64,000 nt of DNA, from NCBI GenBank assembly GCA_031551135.1, contig JAVBOA010000012.1, positions 844 to 64,843 on the forward strand, in the 5' to 3' direction. Under the pieces are notes generated by a model. It was not told the origin of the DNA and searched no databases. It worked only from the letters and a program-made list of their open reading frames with translations. The position numbers and the translations under genes are program-made. The DNA comes from Eubacteriales bacterium. GTDB taxonomy: Bacteria > Bacillota > Clostridia > Lachnospirales > JAITVM01. Shown piece after piece: positions 1 to 19,110 of this stretch (position 1 is its first letter; every line of letters begins with the position of its first letter).

Positions 1-746
1 GGTTTGGATTCTACCCAGACGGTAAGCCAATTACACAAAAAGACCTAAGACTTGAATTGAGTATTGACGAACAGGAAGATGAATTTTGCAATCTCTACAT
101 AAGAGAATTGGAAAAAGGAAATCAAGACACGCAGCGATATGGTCATAGCATGGAATATCTTGAATGTCAAAGGCGAATGGTTGCATTTTATGAGATGAGT
201 GTGGATGGTTTCAGCGCAAAAACAATACGACTCGAACAGATAAATTCTCAAATTAAAACCTTTGAAAATGCCATTGAATCTCTAAGGCGAGCTGGTACTT
301 CCGACGTGACCGAATACGATAATGAGATTTTAGAGCTTAGGCTTGAAAAAGCAAAGATAACAAATTCCCTCTATGGTAAAGAAAATGAATCCGATGAGGA
401 AATGAAGCGAAAGCTTAGCGTTAATGAAAGAGCGTATGAGAGTGACTTCGCATGGAATCAGTATTTCCCAAATCTCAGGTGCAGAGCCAGTGAGAAGTAT
501 TTCAGAGAGCATCCTGAGGCTACCCCCTCTGGGCAGTTGAAACTCGCAAACGAAAGGCTTTCAAATACATTAGATGAGATGCTTGTGATGTCTGCTGCCC
601 TGTTTGTTAGTATAGTCCTTTTGACGATTTCTGTTTGGCTACAAAATAACCGTCCAGAGTACACTATTATAAGTATTCTATTAAGTGTTCTTGTGGTTGT
701 TGGGTTTCCGATGTCGATAAATCATTTCAGCAGTCGTAAGAAGTAA
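1..746 (+). CDS. Hypothetical phage protein with two C-terminal transmembrane helices (5'-truncated by window)
   Basis: The frame of track ORF 57..746 is open back to base 3 (FGFYPDGKPITQKDLRLELSID...); hydrophobic segments LVMSAALFVSIVLLTISVWL and IISILLSVLVVVGFPM. Confidence 0.7.
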   Translation, partial: FGFYPDGKPITQKDLRLELSIDEQEDEFCNLYIRELEKGNQDTQRYGHSMEYLECQRRMVAFYEMSVDGFSAKTIRLEQINSQIKTFENAIESLRRAGTSDVTEYDNEILELRLEKAKITNSLYGKENESDEEMKRKLSVNERAYESDFAWNQYFPNLRCRASEKYFREHPEATPSGQLKLANERLSNTLDEMLVMSAALFVSIVLLTISVWLQNNRPEYTIISILLSVLVVVGFPMSINHFSSRKK

Positions 747-771
747 AATTAGTGAAGGGATTGAACTTGAT

Positions 772-966
772 GTGAAACAAGTAACAGTAAGAGAATTACA
801 AAATGCTCTAAGAATGGCAAATTATGTTCCAAAGAGGACGAAAGGGAGTCACCAGATATGGACTAACGGGGAACAAAATATTGTTGTCCCCGTTGCGCGT
901 CTTAAATATGTAATAGCTGCAAAAATCATTAAAAAATGTGATTTGTCGAATTATTTAAAGTCATAG
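772..966 (+). CDS. HicA-family mRNA interferase-like protein (no adjacent HicB)
   Basis: 64 aa, HicA pattern RELQNAL...RTKGSHQIW...IVVP with the catalytic GSH histidine. Confidence 0.8.
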   Translation: MKQVTVRELQNALRMANYVPKRTKGSHQIWTNGEQNIVVPVARLKYVIAAKIIKKCDLSNYLKS

Positions 967-988
967 ATAAGTTATAAATAATACCATA

Positions 989-1017
989 TTGACTTTATTT
1001 TAATTTCGTGTTAAATT
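989..1017 (+). promoter_or_regulatory. SigA-type promoter upstream of the mazF-like gene
   Basis: TTGACT (989-994), 17-bp spacer, TGn-TAAATT (1012-1017). Confidence 0.5.
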
Positions 1018-1041
1018 AGAAGGAAGATTTCTGAGAGAAAA

Positions 1042-1467
1042 ATGCATAGAAATGGAGTGAGTTGTATTATGAGAAGTAATAACGGCGAAGGGAGGATTCT
1101 TACGGGGCAAATAAGATATGTAGATTTCTCTCAAGGTGATGTAGCTCTGCAAGGTGGTGTAAGACCGGCCGTAATAGTTCAGAACAACGCAGGATGTAAT
1201 TTTAGCCCTCGAATCTGGGTTGTGCCTCTGACATGTAAAGTCGATAAAGCGAACCATTTGCCAGTACACATTAGGATACCAAAATCTGATGACAATGGTC
1301 TAAAGCGCGATAGCATGGCTTTAGTGGAACAAACCCAATTTGTTTTAAAGGATAAAATCGGCGATTTTATCGGCTATTTAGAGACAGAAAACGCAACAAA
1401 GCTTGGAAATGCTTGGATTAATAATTGTTGCGGAATGTTTCCGTCGCAAGTATTAGCTCCGGCTTAA
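1042..1467 (+). CDS. MazF/PemK (NdoA/EndoA-like) endoribonuclease, no adjacent antitoxin; start may be ATG 1069
   Basis: GQIRYVDF...QGGVRPAVIVQNNAGCNFSP.IWVVPLT...GLKRDSMALVEQ matches the Firmicute NdoA pattern, with catalytic Arg (RP) and Thr (PLT) retained. Confidence 0.9.
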   Translation: MHRNGVSCIMRSNNGEGRILTGQIRYVDFSQGDVALQGGVRPAVIVQNNAGCNFSPRIWVVPLTCKVDKANHLPVHIRIPKSDDNGLKRDSMALVEQTQFVLKDKIGDFIGYLETENATKLGNAWINNCCGMFPSQVLAPA

Positions 1468-1555
1468 GTTCTGTTCTGATAAATTATACAAAAGAAAATT
1501 GCGAATTTTAAACATTTGTATATCGGATATAATACTAACATTAAGAGGTGATCTG

Positions 1556-2854
1556 ATGTCTAAAATTGAAGAATTAAGGCAGGTACTTTTAAAAAAAGTC
1601 ATTAAGGGGAAGCCAAAAGTTAAGGCGGATATCTTCGACAAATGCGTCGAAATGAAAAAGCTAAGTAGGGTTGAGGCTACTAATATAGAAAATGGAACAA
1701 TCAACCTTGACACAGTAGATGATCAAAAACTATTTTGGATACTAAAGAATTCTATCCCTGTCATTCCCAAATTGGGAAAAATGGAAGATTATTTTACTGA
1801 GCTTGAGCTACGGAACTACGAGTACTTTGAAGTTGATGATCAAACCAAAGTGTCTTATCCACTCAAATTTGAGAATGTTGAAAACCTGAAGCCAAACGAG
1901 ATTGTTTCTAAACAATATGGCTTTTATCTTACTGTAAAGGAAATCAAAAGACTCCATTCGGCTGGAATATTGCAGGTAATACCTGAGCTTCAGCGAGGTG
2001 GAGTAAAGAACGCTTATGACGAACTAAAGACAAAAGTAAATAAGAGTCGTGTGGCGCAAATCGCTGAAAGAATTTCTGAAGGCGAATATTTTTTCAACAG
2101 TATCTCTTTTAACCTGATTAATGACGACAACGCTATTTGGGATTACGACGGAAGCAAGCTATACATCGAAAAGGGCTTAATTATTGTGCCTGATGGAAAT
2201 CACCGTGCTTTTGCTTGCGAAAGCATTCCCGACAACGATCCACACATGGATGATAAGTTCCATGTTTTGTTTACCGTTCTTACACCGGCAGAAACAAAGA
2301 AAAAAATTGCTCAAGAGTGGAATACAGAGCCAATCAGCAAATCTCAAAAAGAGTATATGGTCATTAACAATTCCAATAGAATATTAGATATGGTTTTACG
2401 TGACGATGACTTGGATGACTTGATTAAGAAAAACATTGCTACTTCAAGTGACAAAAGATTAGTTAAGTCCTCCATCTACGTCTACAGTGACATATCGAAG
2501 GCAATTCAAAAGTATTACAATGGCAACAAGATATCAACAAGAGAAGAACAGAGAGAGTTGTCTGATTGGCTTGTTATGGTTTTCAATCGTGTTGCATTTT
2601 TGTTCGGAGATGACCTCAAAAATGCTTCTACATTACGTAGGAAGAAATGGAACCTCCTACCCTATGCCATGTATGGTTTTATTTACTTGAGCAAAGAACT
2701 CTATAAGAAACCGAATTGGAAGACCATTTTTGACCAGTGTATTAGAAGCATTGATTTTTCCAATACGGCCGATTTCACTGGAAATAGTCTTGAGAAAACA
2801 AAAATACTTGAAGCAGAAAAGATATTTCGTGAGGTGTTCAAAAATGTACAATAA
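1556..2854 (+). CDS. DGQHR/DndB-like (ParB/Srx-fold) protein, probable YopQ/SroE-like phage regulator
   Basis: ELQRG and PDGNHR motifs; GAGGTG RBS before ATG 1556; overlaps the downstream MrpR-like gene, as yopQ lies beside yopR in SPbeta. Confidence 0.75.
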   Translation: MSKIEELRQVLLKKVIKGKPKVKADIFDKCVEMKKLSRVEATNIENGTINLDTVDDQKLFWILKNSIPVIPKLGKMEDYFTELELRNYEYFEVDDQTKVSYPLKFENVENLKPNEIVSKQYGFYLTVKEIKRLHSAGILQVIPELQRGGVKNAYDELKTKVNKSRVAQIAERISEGEYFFNSISFNLINDDNAIWDYDGSKLYIEKGLIIVPDGNHRAFACESIPDNDPHMDDKFHVLFTVLTPAETKKKIAQEWNTEPISKSQKEYMVINNSNRILDMVLRDDDLDDLIKKNIATSSDKRLVKSSIYVYSDISKAIQKYYNGNKISTREEQRELSDWLVMVFNRVAFLFGDDLKNASTLRRKKWNLLPYAMYGFIYLSKELYKKPNWKTIFDQCIRSIDFSNTADFTGNSLEKTKILEAEKIFREVFKNVQ

Positions 2855-3779
2855 GCCGTGGAAAAAAGAATATATCTCACAAGAAAAAACAAATGAAATT
2901 GCACTGAGTGCCTTATTTAAGAGAATTGGCGTCTATGAGGAACGATATGGTAAGGACTTGTGTGAAATGAATTTGGAGGAACTTAAAAGTGTTTTTATTG
3001 CATTGAATATTATATCGAACCAAACGAAACTCAGCTTTAAGAGTATGATGATTGGTTACATAGATTGGTGCATTAGTACAAACAAAACGTCGAGAGAAAA
3101 TGCCTTGCGATTGCTCAATGTCAACGAAATCGTGTCACCAAATGCAATTGAAACAGGAATGATTAAGTCACCTGAAGAGGTATCCGAGATACTCGAAAAA
3201 GCATACCCACAAGATTACAGAACTTTATTTCCTAATAAAGCTGTATTGTCTCAGTTGATTTTTTGGTTGCTCTATTCGGGTCTTAAAGATGATGAAATAT
3301 CGCTACTAAAGAAGGATGACCTTGATATTGAAAACAAAACGATAAAAAGTCCATCGCGTGAAAATATTACTCATAGGGCGTTTAACGAAGTTGTTCCTCT
3401 CTGGGAGCGTTTTATGGATATTGACACAATTGAATTCGAAGCGATTGGAAGAGGTGCTGGACGAGTAAACAAGCTTGTTAACAATGATTATCTTTTTAGA
3501 TACTTTGGAAACAAGGTGGGAGAAGAACATATCAACCGTCAGGTTGTTAGAGATTACCTCCACACACTTTTCGTTAAGTATCAAGAAGCGACTGGTATGC
3601 ATAAGATGGTAAGCATTACCAACATGGGTACTTCAGGATATTTTTACCGCCTAATGATGTCTGCTCGCTCTGATGAAGATGTCAAAAATATTATGCTAAA
3701 CTTTTATGGGAGTAATAAAGGCAAAGCATATAGCCAATTTAACAACTACAGAGATTGGCGGCGGTACTACTTCGAGTAG
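2844..3779 (+). CDS. MrpR/YopR (SroF)-like phage master repressor with degenerate tyrosine-recombinase fold
   Basis: GAGGTG RBS then ATG 2844; N-terminal MYN..K.EY...LF......E..YGKDLCEMN..EL...YIDWC pattern; LLYSGLK..EI..L region has Lys at the catalytic Arg position and no HxxR. Confidence 0.7.
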   Translation: MYNKPWKKEYISQEKTNEIALSALFKRIGVYEERYGKDLCEMNLEELKSVFIALNIISNQTKLSFKSMMIGYIDWCISTNKTSRENALRLLNVNEIVSPNAIETGMIKSPEEVSEILEKAYPQDYRTLFPNKAVLSQLIFWLLYSGLKDDEISLLKKDDLDIENKTIKSPSRENITHRAFNEVVPLWERFMDIDTIEFEAIGRGAGRVNKLVNNDYLFRYFGNKVGEEHINRQVVRDYLHTLFVKYQEATGMHKMVSITNMGTSGYFYRLMMSARSDEDVKNIMLNFYGSNKGKAYSQFNNYRDWRRYYFE

Positions 3780-3796
3780 TATTCTTAATAGAAATA

Positions 3797-3836
3797 AAGT
3801 GATAATTGTTGGTTATAATGCCAACAATTATCACTT
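3797..3836. repeat. Perfect 16-bp inverted repeat after the repressor gene (terminator or operator)
   Basis: AAGTGATAATTGTTGG (3797-3812), 8-nt loop, CCAACAATTATCACTT (3821-3836). Confidence 0.85.
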
Positions 3837-3863
3837 GACTTAGCGACACATTATCAATACAAT
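3835..3863 (+). promoter_or_regulatory. SigA-type promoter with a copy of the 15-bp phage motif overlapping its spacer and -10
   Basis: TTGACT-17bp-TACAAT; GACACATTATCAATA at 3845-3859. Confidence 0.7.
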
Positions 3864-3954
3864 ATATATACATATATATAACTTCAATGGAAATGAAGAG
3901 TGTTTTAAGCAACCAAATATAAAATAAGTAGTTTTTAGAAGGGGTCGATAGCAT

Positions 3955-4359
3955 ATGAATAGAACTTTGATGACGACAGAAAAATTTGCTAGAAGAATTC
4001 TTGAAATGGGAAGTTGTAAGTTTAGCTTTTATATTGAAGCTTGCGACTATTTGCTGACTGTAGCAAAGATTATTCTTGGCAAAAGGCAAATAGTGCTGTT
4101 TGTAGACGAGTTCAATGAAAAGGTAGGAAATAAAAACTATACAATGGCTTTTGGTGTAGATGGATTTAGCAACGACTTTGGAGAAGAGCAGATTATTGAT
4201 AAGGCAATGGCTATAAAGTCAATTATTAATGGACTAAATTCATATAAAAACAAATCAGGGCTAACTGATTGCTCTTGGATCTGGGATGATGAATTATTTG
4301 AGGAAAGAGTTTTGATTAATATAAGTTATGACTTTCCTGATTTATCAGCCGAAAATTAA
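3955..4359 (+). CDS. Hypothetical phage protein
   Basis: 134-aa ORF with AAGGGG RBS, downstream of a promoter. Confidence 0.65.
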   Translation: MNRTLMTTEKFARRILEMGSCKFSFYIEACDYLLTVAKIILGKRQIVLFVDEFNEKVGNKNYTMAFGVDGFSNDFGEEQIIDKAMAIKSIINGLNSYKNKSGLTDCSWIWDDELFEERVLINISYDFPDLSAEN

Positions 4360-4485
4360 TTATTATAACTTATCATTATAATATCAACAATGAAATAATT
4401 GTCAATACATACCTGACCTATATTGAAAAGATAATAAGTCTAGATTATAATTTGATGATACGTTTTGCTTGTGAAGGAGATTGAA

Positions 4486-5022
4486 ATGAAATTCTACATT
4501 GCTGATACACATTTTTTTCACGGAAATATGATTAAATATGAAAACAGACCATTTAAAGACGTTGAAGAAATGAATGAAACAATTGTTGCAAACTGGAATA
4601 GAAAAGTTGCTGAGAACGATGAAATCTACATTCTTGGCGATTTCGCTTTCTGCAACGGCGATAAGGTAAACGAACTCCTTGATCGTCTCAATGGTAAAAA
4701 ATACTTAATCACCGGCAATCATGACAGCTTTATGAAGTACAAGGAATTTGATCGAAGTAAATTTGTGAGCATAAGAGATATCATGAAGGTAAGCGACAAC
4801 AAAACGAAAATAGTTCTTTGTCACTACCCTATCGCTGTATGGGAAAGCCAACATCATGGCTCACTGCACTTTTATGGACATATTCACAAGCTTGGATTTG
4901 ACCGCTTTCCAGACTATGCCCACAAGGAAAATTCATATAACGTAGGTGCAGATCTAACAGGATTCGAGCCGGTTACTCTGGATGAAATCCTGGCAAATTA
5001 CAAAACATGGATGTCAAAATAA
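4486..5022 (+). CDS. Calcineurin-like metallophosphoesterase (phage type)
   Basis: ADTH, LGDF, GNHD, HYP, YGHIH and NVG.D motifs; AAGGAGA RBS before ATG 4486. Confidence 0.9.
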   Translation: MKFYIADTHFFHGNMIKYENRPFKDVEEMNETIVANWNRKVAENDEIYILGDFAFCNGDKVNELLDRLNGKKYLITGNHDSFMKYKEFDRSKFVSIRDIMKVSDNKTKIVLCHYPIAVWESQHHGSLHFYGHIHKLGFDRFPDYAHKENSYNVGADLTGFEPVTLDEILANYKTWMSK

Positions 5023-5256
5023 ATCCATGAAATTCAAAGAAAAAAGCTGTCGGGCAACCCTAATGTACAGTAATCAATTAATAGTTTTATGTGATACCGA
5101 TAAATGAGATCAAAAACAATTTATGTGTACCAAGAGCTGCCTCGACACTATTTTTTTGACCTGAACTCAATAAGCATGATGAAATATGTGCAAGTTAGGT
5201 ATAATGCTATAACAGGAAATGCGCTAGAACAGAGCATTTACTTATATGGACATAGT

Positions 5257-5967
5257 TTAATTATAAAGTTCTTCGTCATAAAGTTCATCATCAAGTTCTT
5301 CGTCGTGAAGTTCATCATTATCGAGTTTTTCTACGCCAAGTTCAGCATATGTAATTTCACCGGTTTGGAGTTTATCGTTTAAAATTTCGGAAAAAAATCC
5401 AGCCAATGTTATTCCATAATAAGGAATGGCAACAACTGATAGAATTCCAAATGTCACAAGAGATAAAATTTCCCAAAGAAAGAAAGAAATCCACAAGTTA
5501 AATATTCGCATTTTATATCCATGCGTCAATCTTTCTGAAATTCTTAAGGCATCACGAGCTGACACGTCAGGAAATTCTGAAAGTATAAAAGGGGTAAAAA
5601 TATAAGCATAAGTTTTGATTATTCCGGGAATTAAAAATAATAGTGAATGTAGAACAACAAATAATGTATGCAGGACAAAACACCACAATTTTTTTAGTAT
5701 ATTTTGAAAAAGACCTTCGAAAATATACTCTGGTTTCACTGCTTCTCCACGATAAACTTTTAAATAAAATCCATTTATTGTAGTACACAATAACCACCCC
5801 AAACAATAGGCAATCATTCCTCTTATGTCGCCTGATTTGGGATCAAGCCTCAATAAGATAAACACAAAAATAACACCCAATAGCAATAATGATGAACAAA
5901 TAACAGTAAACCATTGTTCTTTAAATCTTTCTCGGGCAAGTAATTTCATTTCTTGCCTTGTATACAT
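5257..5967 (-). CDS. DUF975-family integral membrane protein (moron, opposite orientation)
   Basis: MYTRQEMKLLARE, SLLFLIPGIIKTYAY.FTPFIL, AL..S..L..GYK..IF.L.ISF, PYY patterns; GGAGGA RBS. Confidence 0.8.
   Translation of the reverse strand: MYTRQEMKLLARERFKEQWFTVICSSLLLLGVIFVFILLRLDPKSGDIRGMIAYCLGWLLCTTINGFYLKVYRGEAVKPEYIFEGLFQNILKKLWCFVLHTLFVVLHSLLFLIPGIIKTYAYIFTPFILSEFPDVSARDALRISERLTHGYKMRIFNLWISFFLWEILSLVTFGILSVVAIPYYGITLAGFFSEILNDKLQTGEITYAELGVEKLDNDELHDEELDDELYDEELYN
5266..5320. repeat. Short tandem repeat (alternating 15/12-bp units) encoding the acidic tail DNDELHDEELDDELYDEELYN
   Basis: aagttcttcgtcata/aagttcatcatc/aagttcttcgtcgtg/aagttcatcatt. Confidence 0.75.
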
Positions 5968-6176
5968 AAATATCTCCTCCATATATCATACTGTTTTCTT
6001 AAGTTCATTAGCTTAAAAAGTCAGGTCTTTAAATTATCGGATTGTGAATTCAATAAATTAATGATCTGTGATACTTAGTAAATATCTGGAAACCAGAAAA
6101 ATATATACAAATAATTATAAAATTGGATAGGGAGAGGAATTGGTAAATATTTATAAATACAATATCAATAATAATA

Positions 6177-6205
6177 TTGACGGCTCATCATCGCTGTGCT
6201 ATTAT
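6177..6205 (+). promoter_or_regulatory. SigA-type extended -10 promoter of the replication operon
   Basis: TTGACG-17bp-TGcTATTAT; motif copy AATACAATATCAATA at 6156-6170 just upstream of the -35. Confidence 0.75.
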
Positions 6206-6319
6206 TATATAGCGGCACATGATACATAGCGGATTTAGTGTTCTGGTAGTGTCATGACATCATCTCTCGATTCGGGAGTTTGATATAGACAAAATATAAA
6301 CATAAAGGAGCATTTTAGA

Positions 6320-7495
6320 ATGGCGAAAAATGAAAAAAAGAAGTTGGACAAATCTGGTTGGAAAGCACAGTTTATGTTAGTGGGTGTGGCAAAGGTCAAC
6401 GATTATACATACAAAATGGATGCAAAATCCGAGAGATCCGATTGGGTGTACAACTCGCTTAATCTCGGTGTAGACTGCGGAAGCAGTTGCGGAACTATTT
6501 ATGCCGAAATGATGGGTGGTTATGGATCAGAGCGTGACAATGTTCTTTATGTGCATGGTAAAAAGGAAAACGGTCAGGACGATTTTGAAAATAGATTTGT
6601 AATTGACTGGGATGATCGTGAATATGGCGATATATTAGAAAGCATCGGGGACGGTTGCTTCATCACAGTCGGATTAGAGAAAGACAAAACCGGCAAGACG
6701 TTTCCGAAAAAGTTTTTGTCACCATATGATGCAATTGCTTATGTTAAGGAAAATCTCAAGGATGGTACTGTCGTGAATGTAAAGGGTAATATTGAATATT
6801 CCGTATATCAGGATAAGGTACAAGCGAGAAAGAGAATTACAAGAGTTTTCTTGTCGAGCGTGGATGATTCGAGTAAATATGCTGCGAGATTTTCGCAATC
6901 AATGCTTCTGAAAAAAGACAGCCTTGGAAAATTCGACAAAGAAAAAGGAAGCTTCCCTGTCTACGCAACAGTTCTTGAGTACATGAAAATGTGGAAAGAG
7001 AAAGAAGTAAAGCAGTTTCTCCCTCTTAACAAGACGTTTGAGTATGTTGTTAATCCGGAGAATAAAGAAGGGTCAAAGAGGTTCGTCGAGAAGTATCTTA
7101 AAATCAAAAAAGATGTAACTGAAATCGCTTTTGATGGAATGTTTATTGAAAGCGGTGCTCTGGTCACTATGACAGTTGATGATTTGCCTGAAGATATTCA
7201 GGAGCTTATTGAGATTGGTGCTTACACCGAAGAAGAAGCATTGGCAAAATGCACTGAGAACACCGGAAAAGAAAAAAGAATGGTGATTTTAAAACCCTCT
7301 CTGAAACTGGTTGGAGAAGAAGGAAGCAAAGTTCCTGCTGTTGCTATAGTAGAAAAGAAATATTCTGAAGAAGATTTGGTATTGGACTTTATGCTCGAAA
7401 GTGAGGAAGAGCCGGAAGAAGAGTATCTTGCTGAAGTAGAAGCAGGTTTAGAAGTATCTGATGGAGATGTTGATTCTTGGCTGGACTCGCTTTAA
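6320..7495 (+). CDS. Putative phage single-stranded DNA-binding protein (YorF-like position)
   Basis: First gene of the replication operon; OB-like VVNVKGNIEYSVY segment and a very acidic tail ending DVDSWLDSL. Confidence 0.55.
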   Translation: MAKNEKKKLDKSGWKAQFMLVGVAKVNDYTYKMDAKSERSDWVYNSLNLGVDCGSSCGTIYAEMMGGYGSERDNVLYVHGKKENGQDDFENRFVIDWDDREYGDILESIGDGCFITVGLEKDKTGKTFPKKFLSPYDAIAYVKENLKDGTVVNVKGNIEYSVYQDKVQARKRITRVFLSSVDDSSKYAARFSQSMLLKKDSLGKFDKEKGSFPVYATVLEYMKMWKEKEVKQFLPLNKTFEYVVNPENKEGSKRFVEKYLKIKKDVTEIAFDGMFIESGALVTMTVDDLPEDIQELIEIGAYTEEEALAKCTENTGKEKRMVILKPSLKLVGEEGSKVPAVAIVEKKYSEEDLVLDFMLESEEEPEEEYLAEVEAGLEVSDGDVDSWLDSL

Positions 7496-7538
7496 AATAC
7501 AATCATAGACATATTGTCAATAATAGAGGAGATAACAT

Positions 7539-8651
7539 ATGGCTAAATACGGAAAACGAAATGAAATTGATTTGAACCCATTGTCTTATGGAATTTCTCT
7601 ACTTGGCGAGAGCGGAGTAGGGAAAACCACACTTATAAAATCAGTATGCGAAAAACTTGCTGGCGAAGATGGATATTTGTTTTTGGACATCGGCAAAGAA
7701 GACGGATGCAGGGCGATCAATGGGATCGTCGCTGAAACCTGTGAGGACTGGGATAAGTTCGAGGAAGTTGTTGATTATATCGTCGATAATAGAACTTCTG
7801 AGTATGCCGACTTGAAAGTAGTTGTTATTGATACAATTGACCAGTTGTTTGACCTTGCAGAGCAGGAAGTCATTGCTCTTCACAACAGAAATAATCCTGA
7901 CAAAAGAGTTGACTCAATTAATGCTGCTATGGGTGGCTATATGAAGGGGCAAGACAAAGCGGTTGAGATTGTTTTAAACAAGCTCTGGGAGCTAAAGCAT
8001 GTTGGGGTATCCTTTATTATCATCGGTCACGTAAAGAACAAAGATGTCACGGACATCGTTTCTGAAGAGTCTTACAAAACACTTACTTCGAACTTGACGC
8101 AAAGATATTTCAACGCTATTAAAACAAAGGTTTATTTCTTAGGTCTTGCATACGTTGACAGAGAGATTATCAAGGAGAAGACCGGCAAGAAAAATACTGT
8201 TACAAAGAAGGATGAAACCAAAAGCGTTTTAAAATCTGAGGTCAGAAAAATTAATTTCAGGGATGACAATTTTGCCTTGGACAGTAAATCAAGATTTGCA
8301 GACATTGTTGAGTCAATACCTCTTGATCCAGATGCCTTTATTAAAGCAATGCAAGACGCTATTTTAGCCGAACATTCTAAAGGCAGTAAAACTGTTGAAC
8401 AATCACAAAAGGAACAGGAAGATGCTGAAGCAAAACGACTCAAAGATCTCGTTATTGCAGAAGAGAAAGCTAAAAAAGAGAAGGAGTTTTCAGGTCTTGT
8501 AGGCAAAATTAAGGACTACATAAGGGAAAACAAATCTGAAATGAATAAGCTTAAGCCTATGCTTGAAGAAGCAAAAAGACTTGGGTATGCAAATCCAACA
8601 GTAGTTGACAATATCGACGACGCCAAGGCTCTGCTGGCTTTGGCTCAGTAA
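7539..8651 (+). CDS. AAA_24/Sak4-like ATPase (YorG-like)
   Basis: Walker A GESGVGKT, Walker B VVVIDT, IIGH and SRF motifs. Confidence 0.8.
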   Translation: MAKYGKRNEIDLNPLSYGISLLGESGVGKTTLIKSVCEKLAGEDGYLFLDIGKEDGCRAINGIVAETCEDWDKFEEVVDYIVDNRTSEYADLKVVVIDTIDQLFDLAEQEVIALHNRNNPDKRVDSINAAMGGYMKGQDKAVEIVLNKLWELKHVGVSFIIIGHVKNKDVTDIVSEESYKTLTSNLTQRYFNAIKTKVYFLGLAYVDREIIKEKTGKKNTVTKKDETKSVLKSEVRKINFRDDNFALDSKSRFADIVESIPLDPDAFIKAMQDAILAEHSKGSKTVEQSQKEQEDAEAKRLKDLVIAEEKAKKEKEFSGLVGKIKDYIRENKSEMNKLKPMLEEAKRLGYANPTVVDNIDDAKALLALAQ

Positions 8652-8659
8652 TAATTGAG

Positions 8660-8695
8660 GGCGATATTACCACTGTGATATCGCCTATCACTTTC
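8660..8695 (+). terminator. Intergenic hairpin, possible attenuator or terminator
   Basis: GGCGATATTAC-cact-GTGATATCGCC followed by a weak T-rich tail. Confidence 0.45.
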
Positions 8696-8712
8696 TATTT
8701 GGAGGTGTTAAG

Positions 8713-9171
8713 TTGGCAAAACAGAAAAAGAACGACGTAGAGTGGACACAATGGTGTGAGCTTTATGAATATGTAAAAAAGGAAATACTCCAATATGATG
8801 AGAATCAAAAAATCCATCAATCTCTTGTCTTGAGGTTGAAAGGATTGGCATCCGGTAAGTTTATAGAGAACAACAATATATCAAGCAGCGCAAAATATGA
8901 TTACAACATAATTCTCCGAACATTTCAAGTCTGTAAGCCTACTATACTGACCGCGACAAAAAATAAGACTTTTGGCAGTGAAATGGCTAAATTTGTTTAC
9001 ATCTGCGCCATTGTCGAACACAACATAAATGATGTATATATGAGGCTTCAGAAAGCAGAACAATCAAAGGAAAAGATGACGGTTGCGGATACGAGTGTTT
9101 TGTACCATGAAGGTGCTGATTATATTACTAAAACAGAAAAGGGAAAGACAAATTTAGAAAACTTATGGTAA
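8713..9171 (+). CDS. Hypothetical phage replication protein (YorH-like position)
   Basis: GGAGGT RBS with TTG start; lies between the AAA ATPase and the helicase. Confidence 0.65.
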   Translation: MAKQKKNDVEWTQWCELYEYVKKEILQYDENQKIHQSLVLRLKGLASGKFIENNNISSSAKYDYNIILRTFQVCKPTILTATKNKTFGSEMAKFVYICAIVEHNINDVYMRLQKAEQSKEKMTVADTSVLYHEGADYITKTEKGKTNLENLW

Positions 9172-9175
9172 GGCT

Positions 9176-10699
9176 GTGATCAATATTTCGACTCAAAAAA
9201 ACACGACTAAAAAGCCAAAGTTGACACCATTTGAAGAAGAGATGGTGTCAACTATAAAAAAGATTAATGAATATAAACTTGCTTGCGAAGCCAACATTGT
9301 AGCGATTTTTTATTCAAAGCCCGATTTCATTCTTGAAACATCATTAAAGCTTGAGGATTTTGGACAGAACCTCTGGAAAGTCTATTTTGCTATAGCTCGT
9401 GATTTGGTTTTACTTGAAAAGAAATCGGTACTCGATGAAGTTACAGTTGGTCTATACCTCGAAAAACATGACAAACTTAAAGAAAAATACGATGAATACG
9501 GCGCCTACGAAACTATTTCCAACGCAACCGCCTACATAAAAGCAGGAAATCTCGACGGATATATTCAAGAATTAAAAAAATGGAATGCGGTAATCAAACT
9601 TGCTAAATGTGGATTTCCTGTCAACGACAAGATAAGCGAATACGCCGACATGTCTGCCGAGGAAATCTTCCAGCAGTTAGAGACGCTATTAAACCACACT
9701 TTCATCAATGTTGATAGTGAGGTTAAAAGCTACAATGCTGTTGAAGGATTACAAGATTATATAGACGAAATGAATGAAGGTTACGCCGTTGGTATGCCTC
9801 TAAGCAGTTGCAGTATTTTGAACAGGGAAATTGGCGGCTTAAATTTTAACGGACATATATATGGGCTTGGTGCCGCCTCCGGTGTGGGCAAATCCACTAT
9901 GGCCATCAATTACATTGTTCCTTCGGTTCTTAAGTATGATGAGAAAGTTGTATTCATTATTAACGAAGAGGATGTTACGAAGGTAAGACGAGAGCTGCTG
10001 ATCTGGTGTGCAAACAATGTTTTCAAAGAAGAGCTACATAAATATGTGCTTCGAGATGGAAAGTTTGATGAAACCACTCTTGCCCTTCTCCGCAAATGCG
10101 CTGATTGGTTAGAAGCAAAAAAAGAGAGCAAGCACATTACAGTTATTCCTCTTGAGAAATATTCTGCCAAACTGGTTGTGAAAATCATCAAAAAATATAA
10201 CAGTTTAGGCGGTGTCCGTTGTTTTGTTCTTGATACTCTTAAAGAAAGCTACGACGCAACCACTGATGATATTTATAAATCCATGACGAGAGATATGGTT
10301 GATCTTTACGATGTGGTCAAACCCTCCGGCAAAAATGTTTGTCTGTTTGTGACTTATCAGTTGACGAAAGCAAGCCTTAAACAAAGATATTTTACAAATC
10401 ATGAAATCGGTCAGTCAAAGTCAATTGTTGATGTTATGAGCGTCAATCTGATGATGAGACCTCCCCTCCTTGATGAGTTCAAAGATGGTAAAAATGAATT
10501 AACTTGCTACAAACTTGAGGGAAAAAATGGACGGTCAAAGATTCCATTTACTTTAGATAAAGAGAAGCATTACATGATTACTTTCGTAACGAAAAATAGA
10601 TTCGGGTCAACAAATGAGTATCAAATTATTTCTGAGTGCGACCTTTCAAGAAACACGCACAGAGATATCGGTATTTGCTATGTCAATCAAGATTGGTAA
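9176..10699 (+). CDS. DnaB-like replicative helicase
   Basis: Walker A GAASGVGKS, INEE, FVLDTLK, TYQL and KNRFG motifs. Confidence 0.88.
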   Translation: MINISTQKNTTKKPKLTPFEEEMVSTIKKINEYKLACEANIVAIFYSKPDFILETSLKLEDFGQNLWKVYFAIARDLVLLEKKSVLDEVTVGLYLEKHDKLKEKYDEYGAYETISNATAYIKAGNLDGYIQELKKWNAVIKLAKCGFPVNDKISEYADMSAEEIFQQLETLLNHTFINVDSEVKSYNAVEGLQDYIDEMNEGYAVGMPLSSCSILNREIGGLNFNGHIYGLGAASGVGKSTMAINYIVPSVLKYDEKVVFIINEEDVTKVRRELLIWCANNVFKEELHKYVLRDGKFDETTLALLRKCADWLEAKKESKHITVIPLEKYSAKLVVKIIKKYNSLGGVRCFVLDTLKESYDATTDDIYKSMTRDMVDLYDVVKPSGKNVCLFVTYQLTKASLKQRYFTNHEIGQSKSIVDVMSVNLMMRPPLLDEFKDGKNELTCYKLEGKNGRSKIPFTLDKEKHYMITFVTKNRFGSTNEYQIISECDLSRNTHRDIGICYVNQDW

Positions 10700-10739
10700 C
10701 TTTATTTTTGACTTTTGTGAGGTATGGGGTGATTTTGGT

Positions 10740-11804
10740 GTGCAAATTCATGAATTAAAAAGATACATTACCAACAATGATAAAATAGAATACATCTTAA
10801 ACGATCTGGGTTGCCATAGTGTCAAATTTCATCCGTCAAAGAATTATTATACCAGTGCCAATCCGGATGGCGACAACAAAGCCGCTGTCTGCGTTATCAA
10901 CGACCAGCACTTAAGTTGTCGTAACTATACTCGCTACATCGGAGATAATGCAGATATTTTTACCCTTATTCAGTTTTACAAAAAGATTGATTTTAAGGAA
11001 GCCTTCAGATATGCGCACAAAGTTTTAGGCTTAAAGTTTTCCGTAACTGACTCAAAGCCAGTTCAAGATAAGCCAAAACAAGATCCATTGGATATCTTTA
11101 AAAAAGTCATTAATCGCAAAACGAAAATTAATGTCTTCGAATATGACGTGTTGAGCGAAAATGCCTTTAATGACTTTGTGCCATATATTCATTCCAGTTG
11201 GTTCAAAGAAGGTGTAATAAAGAGGACGATTGACAAATTCGGCTTAGCTTACAGCTATAAGCACAAGCGAACAGTCGTGCCGTTACGCCATTGGGCAACA
11301 GGTGAACTGCTCGGATTTAACATGAGAACCAGTGTAGACAATTGTACAGAGTTTGGAATTGCAAAATATTTTACAACTCCGAATTATCCGAAGAGCATTA
11401 ACCTCTTTGGTCTATGGGAAAATTCTGATTCAATTCAGACCAAAAAGAGTGTGGTCGTTTTCGAGAGTGAAAAATCAGTATTGAAACGGCACAGTAGAAA
11501 TGACGAAACGGGGGTTGCTTTAAGCGGTCACGCTTTGCATCCTGAACAAGTGCGTATTTTGATTGGTTTAGGTGTACCCATTACAATTGCAATGGACAAA
11601 GATGTTGATTTACAAGAAGTGAGGCATATGTGTGAGAAATTCTATGGCATCAGGCCAGTTTACTATATTTTTGACCGTTGGGGTCTCTTGGGAGCGAAAG
11701 ATAGTCCAAGTGATGCTAATAATCAGGTCTACGAATTCATGTTCAAACATCGCATCGAGTATGACAAGAAGGAACATTTGGAGTACTTGAAATACAAAAA
11801 ATGA
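10740..11804 (+). CDS. DnaG-like DNA primase (TOPRIM)
   Basis: VVVFESEKSV and IAMDKD TOPRIM motifs, KSINLFGL; GTG 10740 with GGGGTG RBS is more likely than track start 10614. Confidence 0.85.
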   Translation: MQIHELKRYITNNDKIEYILNDLGCHSVKFHPSKNYYTSANPDGDNKAAVCVINDQHLSCRNYTRYIGDNADIFTLIQFYKKIDFKEAFRYAHKVLGLKFSVTDSKPVQDKPKQDPLDIFKKVINRKTKINVFEYDVLSENAFNDFVPYIHSSWFKEGVIKRTIDKFGLAYSYKHKRTVVPLRHWATGELLGFNMRTSVDNCTEFGIAKYFTTPNYPKSINLFGLWENSDSIQTKKSVVVFESEKSVLKRHSRNDETGVALSGHALHPEQVRILIGLGVPITIAMDKDVDLQEVRHMCEKFYGIRPVYYIFDRWGLLGAKDSPSDANNQVYEFMFKHRIEYDKKEHLEYLKYKK

Positions 11805-11816
11805 AAGTTGGTTCTT

Positions 11817-12971
11817 ATGGCGAGAAAAACAATCGAAGAAATAAACGCTTTGAAGAAGAAGTTCTCGGTAGATCGCTTTTGGAGCTGGTCGAGGCTAAAT
11901 AAATACCAGATTAGCTCATTTGAATATTTTCTAAAATATGTACTTCATAAGGCTGAGGACAGAGCAACGTCAATATATGCTCCTTTAGGCGGCATTGTCC
12001 ATGACATTTTGGAAAAATTTTACTCTGGTGAGCTTAAATACGCTCAAATGCTTGAGTCATTTGAGGATTATTTATTTACACTTGAGTTTTCTGATTACAA
12101 GTTCAATCACAATGATGAAGAAAAGAACCGGAAAATCGCTGATAAATACATATATGACATGAAACATTTTTTCAAAAATCATAATCCTTTGAAATTTAAG
12201 GTTGCGCTCGAAGAGTTTGTCACCGCAAAGATAGGAAATCATGTATTCATGGGGTACATTGACTTGGTTTTCAAAGATGGCGATGGCTGCTTCAATATCG
12301 TAGACTTCAAGACTAGCAGCATGTACACCGGCGATAAGGTGCGCGAGAACGCAGGACAGTTAATTCTCTACGCAATCGCTCTAACGCAAATGGGAGTTCC
12401 GCTTGAGAAAATTAAAATCTGCTGGAATTTCCTCAAATATTGCAATATTGAAATTGTCCAAGCCAATGGGAAGAAAACCACACGAAAAGCTAAAAGATCG
12501 GAGATTGGAAGCAGTCTAAAATCAAACTGTTTGATGTGGTTAAAAAAGTTAGGTTACGGTGATGAGGCACAAAACTATATCGATCTCCTTTTGGAAACCA
12601 ATGATATCAGTTGCTTACCGTCAGAGATATATTATAAATATCGAATTGATGATTGCTATGTATTTGTGCCTCTCGACAACAAAACTATTCAAGATATTTG
12701 CATTGAAATAATTGACACGATTGCCGACATCGAGAAAAAAGAACGTGAATATAAGAATACGCACGATGAAAAAGTTTTCTTTGATTCTGAAGAGAGTGTC
12801 GGGAAAGAGAGCTTCTACTTTGCTACATTGTGCGGATATAGTGCAAAGCTCCATAAACCCTATGGGCTATACTTAGACAAAATGAATGCAAAAAAGAATG
12901 GCGGCATCTATGGCGACACATTTGAGGAATCAGTTGAAGATGATTCGCTGGCTTGGCTTAATGATATTTAG
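11817..12971 (+). CDS. PD-(D/E)XK nuclease (RecB/AddB-like phage exonuclease)
   Basis: SWSRL, GGIVHDILE, GYIDLV...IVDFKT and QLILYA motifs. Confidence 0.85.
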   Translation: MARKTIEEINALKKKFSVDRFWSWSRLNKYQISSFEYFLKYVLHKAEDRATSIYAPLGGIVHDILEKFYSGELKYAQMLESFEDYLFTLEFSDYKFNHNDEEKNRKIADKYIYDMKHFFKNHNPLKFKVALEEFVTAKIGNHVFMGYIDLVFKDGDGCFNIVDFKTSSMYTGDKVRENAGQLILYAIALTQMGVPLEKIKICWNFLKYCNIEIVQANGKKTTRKAKRSEIGSSLKSNCLMWLKKLGYGDEAQNYIDLLLETNDISCLPSEIYYKYRIDDCYVFVPLDNKTIQDICIEIIDTIADIEKKEREYKNTHDEKVFFDSEESVGKESFYFATLCGYSAKLHKPYGLYLDKMNAKKNGGIYGDTFEESVEDDSLAWLNDI

Positions 12972-12996
12972 GATTTATAAAGGATGGTGATTTTTT

Positions 12997-15900
12997 ATGG
13001 TTGACCTGCATGTTCACACAAAATACAGTTTACTCGACTCGACAATCGAACCGGAAGAACTTGTAAAAAAAATGAAGGCGCAAGGGAAAACAACCTTGTG
13101 CGTTACAGAGCATGGTAATTTGTATTCTAGTATCGAATTATATAAGCTCTGTTTAAAAAACGGAATCAAATATCTTCATGCCTGTGAAATGTATATCTGT
13201 GATGACGTGCAGATAAACGACAAAGACAATAAATACAATCATTTGATACTCATAAGCAAAAACGAAGCCGGTCGTCGCAATTTAGTAAAGCTCGTATCGC
13301 AATCAAATAATCACAAATACTTTGGAAAACCACGTATTGATTTTAACATGCTTTCGGCTCACAAAGAAGGGTTAATTGTTTTAAGTGCATGTATGGCTGG
13401 AGAGATACAAAGAGCCTTAATGAATAATGATATTACTCTAGCAAAAAATACGGCTCTCAAATACAAAGATTTATTTGGAGACGATTATTATTTAGAATAT
13501 CAAAGCCATTCAGATAAGGTGCAGCAACGACTAAACAGACAGATTATTGATTTGGCGAATGAGGTGAAGATAAAGTATGTCGTCACCACTGATGCCCATT
13601 ACATTGAAAGAGATGTGCAAAAATACCATAATATCTTTGTTCAGATAGGTCAGTCGAGAGAAGTTGGAGAAACTTACAACGACTGCTTTCTCCAAACAGA
13701 AGAAGAGATTTTAGAAATTTGCAAAAGTACCACCAGAGATGAAAATATGGCTGCCATCAGGACTACTGAGGAAATAGCAAATAAATGCAATGTTACAATT
13801 CCTCTGTCTGATCCAATTATGCAGCACTTTGAAACTCCTTCCGGATTCAAAAGCGAAATTGACTATCTTAAACACTTGTGTATTAAAGGGTGGTCAAATA
13901 GAAAGATTGACAAGCTTTCTAATGAGCAAAAGGTTCTTCGAAAGAAACGACTTGCTTATGAGGTTCATGCAATTGAGGAAATGGGTTTTGAAGGCTATTA
14001 CCTAAATGTGTGGGATTACGCAAACTCAGTAACTCGAAGGGGTATAGCCCGTGGCTCTGGAGGAGGAAGCCTTGTAGCATACTTGCTCAATATTGTTGAT
14101 ACCGATCCGGTTAAATATGGTCTTTACTTCGAAAGATTTATTGATGTTGGTGCTCTCCAGCTTCTCAAAGACGGCAAGATTACAAAAGCACAGTTGAAAA
14201 CGCCGGATTTCGACTTGGATTTTGGAAGAGAAGACAGGGAAAAAGTTTTGCAATCAGTCATTGACAAACATGGCATAGAGAAAATCGCCAGCCTCGGATC
14301 ATTCCAGTACATTTGGGCAAAGGGAGCGATCAAGGATATCGGAAAAGTCCTTGGTATTCCCTTTTCTGTCACAAACGAGATGACTTCGAAGCTGGATGGC
14401 GAGACAATTCAAGAAGTATTGGACTTAGGTTTATTGAAACAATTTGAAAAAGAATATCCGGAGCTTTTTGAGTATGCTTCGAAACTTGCTGGATTACCTA
14501 AAGCGTTTTCAGTACATCCTTGTGGAAAAGTTATTTGTGAGCAGTCTGTGGACTACTACAATTCTACTGAGATAAGTGACTCTGGCGATATTGTTCTCCA
14601 AGGCGACATGCATACAGCCGAGGACTTGGGATTAATCAAAGCCGACTTCCTCGGATTGAGAACTGTTGATATTATTTATGATGTTTTGGATATGATCGGT
14701 AAGAACTATGATTATATTGCTCCCCACAATATCAATTTTGAAGATGCTACAGTCTGGGACAGCTTCAGGAATGGTCATACAGCAGGGATTTTTCAATTTG
14801 AATCCGAGGGTATGAAATCCACTCTAAGAAATATCGAGTGTTCCTCGCTGTATGACTTAACCGTAGCGAACGCACTCTACAGACCGGGGTCGATGGCGTT
14901 CATTGACAATTATGCCAAGCGTAGAAAAGGCATTGAAAAATATGAATTCCTGCATAATGACCTCAAGCCTATTCTCGAAGACAGTTACGCAATTATAGTC
15001 TTCCAAGAACAGCTCATCGAAATTGGCAGACTAGCCGGATTAAGCAATCCCGATGAACTGCGTCAGGCAACAGCAAAAAAGAAACCTCAGTTAATGGCAA
15101 AAATTGAACCTGAGCTTAAAGATGGTTTGATGCAAAGAGGTTGGAATCAGGAGCAGGTTGATATTCTTTGGGATACTATATTAGATTTTGCACGATACTC
15201 CTTCAACAAATCCCATGCGCTGGCGTATGCAATGATAGCATATATCTGCATGTTTCTAAAAACTTATCATCCAAAGGAATTTATCTGTGCGTGGATCAAC
15301 AGCTACGGAGGTAAAACACAGAAGCTTCCGGTTTGCTATGCTGAGTCAAGAAGGCTTGGTGTTCCATTGTATGATGCTCAGTTTGGCGAAAGTAAGTCTA
15401 TAGCTCAGGTTTACAAAGATGGCGTAATGATTGGAACCCAGACAATTAAGTTTTGCAATGCTCAAATTGCTGAAGAGTTGATGGTGTTATCAAAAAATAA
15501 ATATAGATCATTTATTGAATTGATAGGCGATATCAAAACCAAAACATCAATTGAAAGTCGGCAGTTAAGAATTTTGACTGGACTCAATTTCTTCAGCAAG
15601 TTTGGTAAATCGCAATACTTGTTAGATTCCATTGAAATTTATGATAAGTTCCACAACGCTAAAAAAGAAGAGATTAAGCAAATCAAAATTAACGAGCTTG
15701 AAAAATACGGTCTGACGGAATATCTTATGGAAAAGTTTGCTGGGAAAAGAACGGCTGCTCTTTATAAGGAACTTGATGTTAAAGGACTGATATCAGAACT
15801 TTGCTCAAAGCTTGAAAACAAGGTTATGAGTATCGTCGAGCAAGTGAAGTTTGAAATAGAATTCCTTGAATATACCACTTATATTAACCCGAATGTAAAT

Positions 15901-16164
15901 CATGAGTATTTCATTGTCATAGGCTTTAAATGCTATAAAGATGTCACAAAACCTTACCTTATTTTGAGAAATATCAGCTCTGGCGAAGAGGTCAAAACAA
16001 GGGTTAAACAGGGAAAGAGTTTCAAACAAAATCCTTTTGGGTGCTTTAGTATTTTGAGGATAAGGGAATTTAGTGAACAGTTCAAAAAGAGAAATGTTGG
16101 AGGCGACTGGGTTGAGACTGATGAGAGGGAGCCTATATTAGACGAGTGGGAAGTGATTAAATAA
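12997..16164 (+). CDS. dnaE: Phage DNA polymerase III alpha subunit (DnaE type)
   Basis: PHP domain DLHVHTKYSLLD, RGSGGGSLVAYLL, catalytic PDFDLDF, YSFNKSHA; no intein evident. Confidence 0.95.
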   Translation: MVDLHVHTKYSLLDSTIEPEELVKKMKAQGKTTLCVTEHGNLYSSIELYKLCLKNGIKYLHACEMYICDDVQINDKDNKYNHLILISKNEAGRRNLVKLVSQSNNHKYFGKPRIDFNMLSAHKEGLIVLSACMAGEIQRALMNNDITLAKNTALKYKDLFGDDYYLEYQSHSDKVQQRLNRQIIDLANEVKIKYVVTTDAHYIERDVQKYHNIFVQIGQSREVGETYNDCFLQTEEEILEICKSTTRDENMAAIRTTEEIANKCNVTIPLSDPIMQHFETPSGFKSEIDYLKHLCIKGWSNRKIDKLSNEQKVLRKKRLAYEVHAIEEMGFEGYYLNVWDYANSVTRRGIARGSGGGSLVAYLLNIVDTDPVKYGLYFERFIDVGALQLLKDGKITKAQLKTPDFDLDFGREDREKVLQSVIDKHGIEKIASLGSFQYIWAKGAIKDIGKVLGIPFSVTNEMTSKLDGETIQEVLDLGLLKQFEKEYPELFEYASKLAGLPKAFSVHPCGKVICEQSVDYYNSTEISDSGDIVLQGDMHTAEDLGLIKADFLGLRTVDIIYDVLDMIGKNYDYIAPHNINFEDATVWDSFRNGHTAGIFQFESEGMKSTLRNIECSSLYDLTVANALYRPGSMAFIDNYAKRRKGIEKYEFLHNDLKPILEDSYAIIVFQEQLIEIGRLAGLSNPDELRQATAKKKPQLMAKIEPELKDGLMQRGWNQEQVDILWDTILDFARYSFNKSHALAYAMIAYICMFLKTYHPKEFICAWINSYGGKTQKLPVCYAESRRLGVPLYDAQFGESKSIAQVYKDGVMIGTQTIKFCNAQIAEELMVLSKNKYRSFIELIGDIKTKTSIESRQLRILTGLNFFSKFGKSQYLLDSIEIYDKFHNAKKEEIKQIKINELEKYGLTEYLMEKFAGKRTAALYKELDVKGLISELCSKLENKVMSIVEQVKFEIEFLEYTTYINPNVNHEYFIVIGFKCYKDVTKPYLILRNISSGEEVKTRVKQGKSFKQNPFGCFSILRIREFSEQFKKRNVGGDWVETDEREPILDEWEVIK

Positions 16165-18476: not shown

Positions 18477-18479
18477 TCA

Positions 18480-18508
18480 TTGACATTGTGCTTGAAATGT
18501 GGTATTCT
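18480..18508 (+). promoter_or_regulatory. SigA-type extended -10 promoter before rnh
   Basis: TTGACA-17bp-TGgTATTCT; motif copy GACACAATATCAATA at 18458-18472. Confidence 0.75.
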
Positions 18509-18564
18509 ATTTATTGTCACATTAAAGAATTCTTCTTGTTAGAGTTTATTTAGGAAGGTGAGAT

Positions 18565-19032: not shown

Positions 19033-19051
19033 AATATTATGTAAAGTTACA

Positions 19052-19074: not shown

Positions 19075-19110
19075 GCCGACATTGAAAACCATATAAAACA
19101 GATATTTGGT

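Follow-up and report, generated by a model that had tools for sequence, protein, structure and literature searches.

A MazF-family endoribonuclease gene at the head of a predicted YopQ–MrpR-type operon in a putative SPbeta-like prophage of a Clostridia bacterium

Genes of the locus

The locus described here occupies positions 772–3779 of a 64,000-nt stretch of DNA, referred to below as the window, which corresponds to C33:844-64843, that is, to contig JAVBOA010000012.1 (C33) of the 3.38-Mb draft genome G000 (60 contigs, 92.8% complete) of an Eubacteriales bacterium (assembly GCA_031551135.1). The initial annotation placed here a lysis–lysogeny cassette of four co-oriented phage genes, and all four are indeed present between these coordinates on the forward strand; they encode a HicA-like protein, an endoribonuclease of the MazF family, a ParB-fold protein resembling YopQ (SroE) and an integrase-fold regulator resembling MrpR (YopR, SroF) of SPbeta-like Bacillus phages. 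The last three genes, with MazF in the first position, are the main subject of this work. The open reading frames (ORFs) as called span 772-966, 1042-1467, 1499-2854 and 2730-3779, and better starts, given below, follow from reading the DNA itself.

The MazF/PemK-family gene (1069-1467, +) codes for 132 amino acids from the ATG at 1069, which follows GGAG at 1054, while the ATG at 1042 is also open. The product matches PF02452 (E 1.8e-16) and phrog_1936, annotated as "MazF-like growth inhibitor". Aligned with EndoA of B. subtilis (4mdx), the protein retains both residues that we take to be catalytic Arg25 and Thr48, Arg in GGVRP and Thr in LT, in line with the initial annotation. No ORF of a MazE/PemI-type antitoxin adjoining MazF was seen by eye within 700-1560, and the spaces between the cassette genes contain, also by eye, no antitoxin-like ORF of at least 20 amino acids. 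PADLOC defence models gave no match for the 8 proteins submitted, every cassette protein included, and the NCBIfam scan produced weak matches only.

The YopQ/SroE-like gene of the DndB family (1556-2854, +) starts at ATG 1556 after AAGAGGTGA and encodes 432 amino acids. Its product scores 36.7 bits with PF14072 (DndB) against the cut-off of 29.1, matches phrog_5732 at 4e-42 and is related by tblastn to yopQ of SPBc2 (3e-5) and phi3T (1e-9). The name "DGQHR protein" given to it initially did not hold, its motif reading DGNHR and the TIGR03187 DGQHR model scoring 20.5 bits at a cut-off of 58.85. Neighbouring genes include none of the dnd genes of Dnd DNA phosphorothioation. Clostridioides phage ES-S-0107-01 was considered as a relative and set aside, as its gene listing shows a DGQHR-like gene amid replication genes and no evident MrpR-like ORF.

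The stop codon of the YopQ-like gene (2852-2854) is overlapped, over 11 nt, by the start of the gene for the MrpR/YopR/SroF-family integrase-fold regulator (2844-3779, +; 311 amino acids, ATG 2844 after GAGGTG). This protein matches PF22822 (MrpR_N_CB) with E 1.2e-15 and 58.3 bits at a cut-off of 27. Among 1.84 billion representatives searched with it, 690 relatives were obtained at E <=0.001. The profile built from 53 of the relatives matches the solved structures of YopR/MrpR and phi3T SroF (PDB 8bj6, 8bjv, 8a0a, 9rd5) over their full length with E from 6e-30 to 4e-24, the best match covering positions 4-309 of 322 (E 6e-30). Identity to the SPbeta protein is too low for tblastn, and this relation is therefore seen by profile only. 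Taken together, Pfam, PHROGs, tblastn and structure-profile matches bear out the initial assignment of the last two proteins as homologues of YopQ/SroE and MrpR/SroF.

Relationship to SPbeta

Downstream of the cassette follow, in this order, genes for a phosphoesterase, a phrog_2367 SSB-like protein and a Sak4-like protein, then for a helicase-like protein, a PD-(D/E)XK nuclease, DNA polymerase III alpha and a RecD-like helicase, and further on for an SLT lysozyme, a C5 methylase and ribonucleotide reductase (RNR). The prophage region ends with a large serine recombinase gene (27720-29261), the serine recombinase of SPbeta being SprA (PMC10516654; here and below the cited sources are quoted from the parts available). 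Compared with SPBc2/SPbeta the gene order is the same, yopQ-yopR preceding yorG, yorI, yorL, mtbP and nrdE, which places the locus in an SPbeta-like genome context. Positions 1-29.3 kb of the window are thus best explained as the right arm of a large SPbeta-like prophage residing in a gut Clostridia bacterium. Relatives were sought by blastn of window 700-3900 against phages, by single-protein scans of viral contigs and by the alignments A3 (genome contigs and viral contigs) and A6 (viral contigs), none of which returned any.

Resemblance to the sro operon of SPbeta (yopMNOPQR/sroABCDEF) extends beyond the direct succession of a YopQ/SroE-like DndB-family gene and an MrpR/SroF-family gene. In both cases the pair lies upstream of early and replication genes, a serine recombinase gene closes the genome, a stem-loop is found past the last operon gene and a short repeat precedes downstream genes, SPBRE in SPbeta and a 15-mer here. 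Unlike the sro operon, the present locus carries MazF at its head, is hosted by Clostridia rather than Bacilli, and no counterparts of YopM/SroA, YopN/SroB, YopO (HTH) or YopP (integrase) were found by phmmer in or near the cassette. SPbeta YopM and YopN were also examined as possible hidden HicA or MazF folds and gave no Pfam signal for HicA or PemK.

RNA evidence and regulatory sites

In metatranscriptome run X2, produced in the study that also yielded the probable source DNA, one 2773-nt contig coincides exactly, with no differences, with 1027-3799 and bridges the MazF, YopQ-like and MrpR-like genes, separate contigs covering 1-921 and 4425-5935. Respective k-mer depths in X2 are 110 (1027-3799), 8.6 (1-921) and 31 (4425-5935) at a flat 14 in DNA run X1, and these values serve as a hint only, as contigs of an RNA library prove no transcript ends, strand or level and their depth cannot rank genes. 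Within 1-20000 the cover by X2 contigs is absent, for example, at 922-1026 and 18010-20000; such holes prove nothing, and run X3 is nearly empty. The observed contig is a hint that MazF, YopQ-like and MrpR-like sequences belong to one well-represented RNA.

The beginning of this contig lies just after a promoter-like site at 989-1017 (+), located between the HicA-like and MazF genes and composed of TTGACT, a 17-nt spacer and TAAATT, the -10 element being preceded by TG; promoter-like sites were collected by a consensus scan, and their frequency here is no higher than in shuffled sequences. Just past the MrpR-like stop codon an inverted repeat with perfect 16-bp arms around a loop of 8 nt (3797-3836) could be a terminator or an operator. 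The genes at 1069-3779 are best explained as one operon, expressed in the lysogen and representing the counterpart of the end of the SPbeta sro repressor operon, with MazF as its first gene.

Immediately downstream, the 15-mer GACACAWTATCAATA has its first copy at 3845-3859 (+), in the spacer of another promoter-like site (3835-3863), while other copies with <=2 mismatches start at 6156, 7508, 18458, 19281, 20558 and 23047 (+) ahead of downstream phage genes. In the window it has 17 matches against 6.75 +/- 2.6 in shuffled sequences, 0 of the 100 shuffles reaching 17, and the copies often stand directly after a TTGAC -35-like hexamer. Genome-wide, 43 matches with <=2 mismatches were counted, contigs C21 and C33 harbouring 8 and 7 of them, respectively, with the C21 copies at 124935-137719. 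MrpR is reported to bind SPBRE of SPbeta (PMC10516654), and the 15-mer may be the counterpart of this operator or the core of phage promoters.

The HicA-like gene as a probable separate unit

The HicA-like gene (772-966, +) encodes 64 amino acids with a GSH motif from a GTG start at 772 preceded by GAAGGGA. Its assignment is borderline in Pfam (PF07927, E 5e-6; 26.9 bits, marginally below the cut-off of 27, and 25.9 bits when the genome was searched); at the same time the protein carries the precomputed label PF07927.18, matches phrog_353 "toxin" at 7e-8, aligns its GSH with GGH of 1whz and has as its three best ESM Atlas clusters, all at a score of 0.88 that is to be taken as a lead only, clusters of PF07927. 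No other PF07927 match exists in the genome. Like hicAB systems, the locus encodes a small HicA-like protein with the conserved Gly-x-His motif; unlike them, it has MazF instead of HicB directly 3′ of this gene. The initial remark that no MazE- or HicB-like ORF stands between the cassette genes holds for the cassette itself and needs an amendment for the prophage, as the only HicB-like ORF is found on another contig, C21, which probably belongs to the same element.

Upstream lies the 3′ part of a gene (1-746, +) starting before the window, at C33:594-627, for a protein of about 320-331 amino acids with a hydrophobic C-terminus, for which no family was found in Pfam, NCBIfam or PADLOC and no usable match in the ESM Atlas. 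This membrane-protein gene is probably co-transcribed with the HicA-like gene. Since the RNA contig of MazF, YopQ-like and MrpR-like genes begins just after the promoter-like site, the HicA-like gene probably belongs, together with the membrane-protein gene, to a separate upstream transcription unit. Its inclusion in the same cassette, assumed in the initial annotation, is thereby disfavoured: it falls on another RNA-library contig than MazF, and phmmer found no HicA-like gene linked to the MrpR-like gene in any of the other 12 loci described below. The HicA-like gene would then probably be accessory cargo.

Linkage of MazF to MrpR-like genes

In 13 distinct loci revealed by a uniform re-scan, MazF and an MrpR-like gene share a strand and lie no more than 1.4 kb apart; the loci are located on C33 and C60 of the same genome, in genomes G592 and G882, on 8 of 8 IMG/VR contigs and on metagenome contig L049. 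Three arrangements occur, MazF-MrpR, MazF-DndB-like-MrpR and MrpR-DUF262-MazF, and the residues considered catalytic are conserved, Arg in 9 of 10 aligned MazFs and Thr in all 10. The expected linkage of both toxins to MrpR homologues was thus obtained for MazF (13 loci) and failed for HicA (0 of the 12 other loci).

In the genome under study PF02452 has 3 matches and PF22822 has 2, and upstream of each MrpR-like gene, less than 1.4 kb away, MazF is encoded on the same strand; the adjacency of MazF and MrpR in this genome is beyond chance. The second MrpR-like protein, encoded on C60, shares 33% identity with the first, and directly upstream of its gene is MazF (PF02452, 5.8e-32), preceded by a tyrosine integrase; conventional antitoxins adjoin MazF neither on C33 nor on C60. 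The segment C60:67401-69969, with integrase, MazF and MrpR-like genes in a row, has the look of a second prophage-like element, where the MrpR-like gene is followed by ImmA-like and XRE genes (recognized by eye) on the opposite strand and then by SSB-like and Sak4-like genes.

Beyond this genome, the PF22822 search yielded matches in 6 of 400 genomes of the class, the window's own among them, and in 2 of 164 genomes of the family of G592. Both G592 and G882 have the order [106-107 amino acid ORF]-MazF-MrpR, and the alignment of their MrpR proteins led to the 8 IMG/VR contigs, in which MrpR identity to the query is 25-61% and MazF ends 10-90 nt before MrpR in every case. The ORF just upstream of MazF, conserved in the G592 clade at 106-134 amino acids, has no family match, and its resemblance to HicA was rejected by hhalign (probability 1.25%). 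MazFs of this clade (L032-L040) have a conserved C-terminal extension of ~30 amino acids past the PemK domain, with which the MazFs of the window, of C60 and of the host chromosome are not endowed.

A subfamily of MrpR closer to the protein of the window was collected from 11 metagenome contigs, 6 of which (L042, L045, L047, L048, L049 and L050) contain a GmrSD_N/DUF262 gene, also ParB-fold, directly downstream of MrpR. These pairs resemble the pair of the window in joining an MrpR-family gene to a ParB-superfamily gene and differ from it in the reversed order, MrpR standing first in contrast to YopQ-YopR, and in the partner, which is DUF262-type, not DndB-type. L049 alone among the six continues with MazF. 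Genes for RtcB RNA ligase are situated 0.5-1.1 kb upstream of the MrpR-like gene on two of the contigs (L044:860-2056 and L049:2591-3790), the latter being the one with MazF; RtcB is able to re-join RNA ends made by RNase toxins.

Among GenBank phages, MrpR-like genes were found in 46 records, the matches listed being exclusively phages of Bacillales hosts, and no overlap was noticed between the listed MrpR-phage records (40 of 46) and the listed MazF-phage records (60 of 102). A search with the G882-type MrpR found no relatives among GenBank phages.

Host MazF and arbitrium components

The chromosomal MazF of the host is encoded on C11:2760-3500 (L006 1094-1836) between alr and clpS-clpA. No mazE is present beside it, the 390-nt gap before mazF containing no ORF longer than 47 codons; PF01402 has no match in the genome, and PF04014 matches only on C4, C25 and C58, none of them beside any MazF. 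Among 14 alr-mazF loci of the same order (L056-L069) an ORF of at least 50 amino acids abuts mazF in one (L065), and several gaps measure only 45-71 nt. Solitary MazF thus seems to be tolerated and to be the rule in the host lineage. The initial proposal that the phage might act by titrating host MazE is therefore unlikely, as the alr-linked mazF of the host lacks a mazE ORF and none of the MazF genes of the genome was seen to have a MazE-type neighbour.

A search for the arbitrium receptor with SPbeta AimR (phmmer) revealed no homologue at E <=0.01 in this 92.8% complete genome, which is not conclusive because the contig breaks in an insertion sequence (IS) just upstream of the cassette. For YosL, YopM, YopN, YopO, YopS and YopT phmmer gave nothing credible in the genome.

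Discussion

The background on arbitrium and host MazEF from which the initial annotation proceeded agrees with the available parts of PMC10769878 and PMC10516654. The lysis–lysogeny choice of phi3T and SPbeta runs via host MazF: SroB of phi3T (phi3T_93) binds MazE and AimX, whereby host MazF is freed and lysogeny promoted, while AimX and YosL block MazF, whose activity favours lysogeny and whose block is needed for lysis (PMC10769878). YopM binds MazE as well (PMC10516654, citing Cui 2022); the first genes of the Bacillus sro operon free host MazF, which promotes lysogeny (PMC10769878, PMC10516654). MazF is described as degrading most phage mRNAs and sparing the sro operon (10.1101/2025.11.27.690993, citing reference 38), and the same preprint regards the way in which MazF promotes lysogeny as still open and the role of SroE as unknown. 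The locus of the window resembles this network of AimX, YosL, SroB/phi3T_93 and YopM in that a MazF-family RNase would be functionally tied to an MrpR/SroF repressor operon. It differs in that MazF is encoded by the phage, host MazF has no MazE to be sequestered and no YosL-like MazE mimic was found by sequence. At the place taken by MazE-binding proteins in Bacillus phages, a genuine MazF is encoded in the Clostridia prophage; neither aimR nor aimP was found here.

Proceeding from the assigned gene families, the gene order shared with SPbeta, the recurrent MazF beside MrpR-like genes and the RNA contig bridging the three genes, we tentatively propose, with a confidence falling slightly short of even, that MazF, hard-wired in the lysogeny operon, takes over in cis the task performed by host MazF in phi3T and SPbeta. 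Under this proposal, the MrpR-like protein together with its ParB-fold partner would repress early promoters, and co-expressed MazF would cut lytic transcripts, either those of its own phage or of superinfecting ones, which may favour and stabilise lysogeny. In phi3T and SPbeta phage proteins free host MazF from MazE; a hard-wired RNase would need no MazE, and might be tolerated owing to narrow specificity or to restraint by some partner.

A number of observations weigh against the proposed role in lysogeny, apart from the limits of RNA-library contigs given above. The operon is not depleted of UACAU, the site of B. subtilis MazF (3 observed against 3.0-4.6 expected), nor is the rest of the phage (33 against 28-39 expected), this avoidance test being low-powered and the B. 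subtilis site perhaps not that of the present MazF; UACAUA and ACA, compared at equally low power between the cassette and the rest of the phage, show no depletion either. MazF is absent from 5 MrpR loci with flanks of at least 3 kb, namely SPbeta, Mammaliicoccus phi36, G522 (a Tn7-like context), G018 (YopQ-MrpR only) and L047; other metagenome contigs are too short for judgement. A single query clade supplied 8 of the linked loci (13 in all), so that these 8 are not independent, and the MazF tree has 0 of 13 inner branches starred, which leaves the number of independent recruitments uncountable. In G592-type phages the operon [106 amino acids]-MazF-MrpR-HD-ERF-SSB diverges from a CI/LexA-like repressor gene (L034:2970-3770, minus strand, HTH_3 and Peptidase_S24 by Pfam; L036:3046-3924, minus strand, by eye), so that these phages would have two regulators. 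Since a CI-like repressor is present there and apparent ImmA/XRE genes on C60, the MrpR-like protein is not necessarily the master repressor everywhere, and MazF of these elements could be an early lytic gene. Finally, solitary MazF is common in phages (102 records), and the 4 contexts inspected all had no MrpR-like neighbour.

This last circumstance, with contexts that vary among the 102 records, also speaks for another view, which regards MazF and the HicA-like protein as defence cargo (morons) expressed in the lysogen by riding on or next to the repressor operon and acting in abortive infection or phage exclusion with no part in the lysis–lysogeny decision of their own phage. We consider this somewhat unlikely. 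Both families do belong to the PHROGs category "moron, auxiliary metabolic gene and host takeover", further toxin–antitoxin (TA)-type ORFs (HicB-like and RelB-like) lie in what is probably the left part of the prophage, the HicA-like gene is linked to MrpR at this locus only, and MazEF is reported to defend against mutant phi3T (10.1101/2023.04.27.537455). Yet no cassette protein answers to a defence model of PADLOC, and the retention of MazF beside MrpR-like genes over 25-61% MrpR identity and in three gene orders is more than freely shuffled cargo would show. Solitary phage MazF of PHROG 1936 has in common with ours a PemK-fold toxin gene with no adjacent MazE, and what sets the window and the 12 other loci apart from the 4 inspected phages is precisely the pairing with MrpR.

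The constancy of this pairing permits one more explanation, which is unlikely in our estimation, namely a TA-like pair of MazF with the MrpR-like protein (and perhaps also the ParB-fold partner), in which the regulator neutralises MazF and its loss, through curing or an antirepressor, frees the RNase, leading to prophage addiction or to host shut-off at induction. The MrpR-like gene is the only one always found beside these MazFs in the 13 loci, and a conventional antitoxin is missing next to MazF on both C33 and C60. DNA-binding autorepression is typical of type II antitoxins, and the toxin-first order has precedents in hicAB and higBA. Against it, the true antitoxin of the G592 clade could be the product of the 106-134 amino acid ORF that precedes MazF there, on C33 and L049 the ParB-fold gene stands between MazF and MrpR, MrpR relatives of Bacillales phages work with no MazF, and as solitary mazF is the rule in the host order, an antitoxin in cis may not be needed. 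Prediction of a complex of two MazF copies with the MrpR-like protein returned "no answer" at a score of zero, which speaks neither for nor against binding. In its boldest form, distinctly improbable as we see it, the MrpR-type regulator, alone or with the ParB-fold partner, would be the cognate neutraliser of MazF and thereby establish a new kind of TA system with the prophage master repressor as antitoxin; if true, inactivation of the repressor at induction or curing would free the RNase in the same step, and the evolution by Bacillus relatives of same-operon proteins tapping host MazEF would be explained.

That MazF is instead a lytic-cycle RNase of host takeover, degrading host mRNA early and placed by MrpR for early timing rather than for lysogeny, is very improbable: on L034 and L036 MazF-MrpR opens an operon running into HD-domain, ERF and SSB genes and divergent from the CI-like repressor, and in phages Lagaffe, NatCom and Perkons MazF lies amid early and replication genes, but the MazF-YopQ-MrpR RNA contig of the window is distinct from the replication-gene contigs and far higher in k-mer depth (a hint only), and lysis of phi3T and SPbeta needs MazF activity to be blocked (PMC10769878).

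As to the hard-wired MazF proposed here, the component families and the SroE/SroF pair are known, while a MazF gene in or beside the MrpR operon, recurrent in Clostridia prophages, is new, as are the combination of MrpR with a ParB-fold partner, DndB-type or DUF262-type, beyond Bacilli and in either gene order, and the RNA-level support for the MazF-YopQ-MrpR unit. No description of a MazF that is encoded by a phage and linked to MrpR, YopR or SroF was found in PMC open-access papers or bioRxiv, and the 321-genome SPbeta-like database of the 2025 preprint may hold cases. Clostridia prophages may thus provide independent comparative evidence, suggesting that a MazF-type RNase is integral to this kind of lysogeny control and not a quirk of B. 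subtilis. They may also offer a simpler system for studying its mechanism, comprising three genes with no MazE and no arbitrium genes found.

Flanking sequences and the probable left part of the prophage

Contig C33 opens with the end of a TnpB gene belonging to an IS607-type element just upstream of the cassette, the break being 0.2 kb before the upstream gene. This IS607-family element, consisting of TnpA (MerR helix-turn-helix and resolvase) and TnpB, is multi-copy and breaks many contigs of the assembly: besides C33:1-450 it was found at the ends of C5, C17, C22, C26, C36, C38, C41, C42 and C28, with a full copy near C52:94457-95845. Because of its multiplicity no junction between C33 and the left part of the prophage is available in the assembly. 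The best candidate for this part is the end of contig C21, which is phage-like and terminates in the start of an IS607-type TnpA, C33 beginning with a TnpB end. Two TA-type ORFs lie there, a lone HicB-like/UPF0150 ORF (C21:132995-133238; PF15919, 27.4 bits at a cut-off of 27) and an ORF of a RelB-family antitoxin (C21:141172-141448) directly before the TnpA that ends the contig, and no partner toxin gene was seen adjoining either of them. Adjacency of C21 and C33 is only probable, since the IS is multi-copy, and is supported by the phage-like genes and by the 15-mer common to both contigs.

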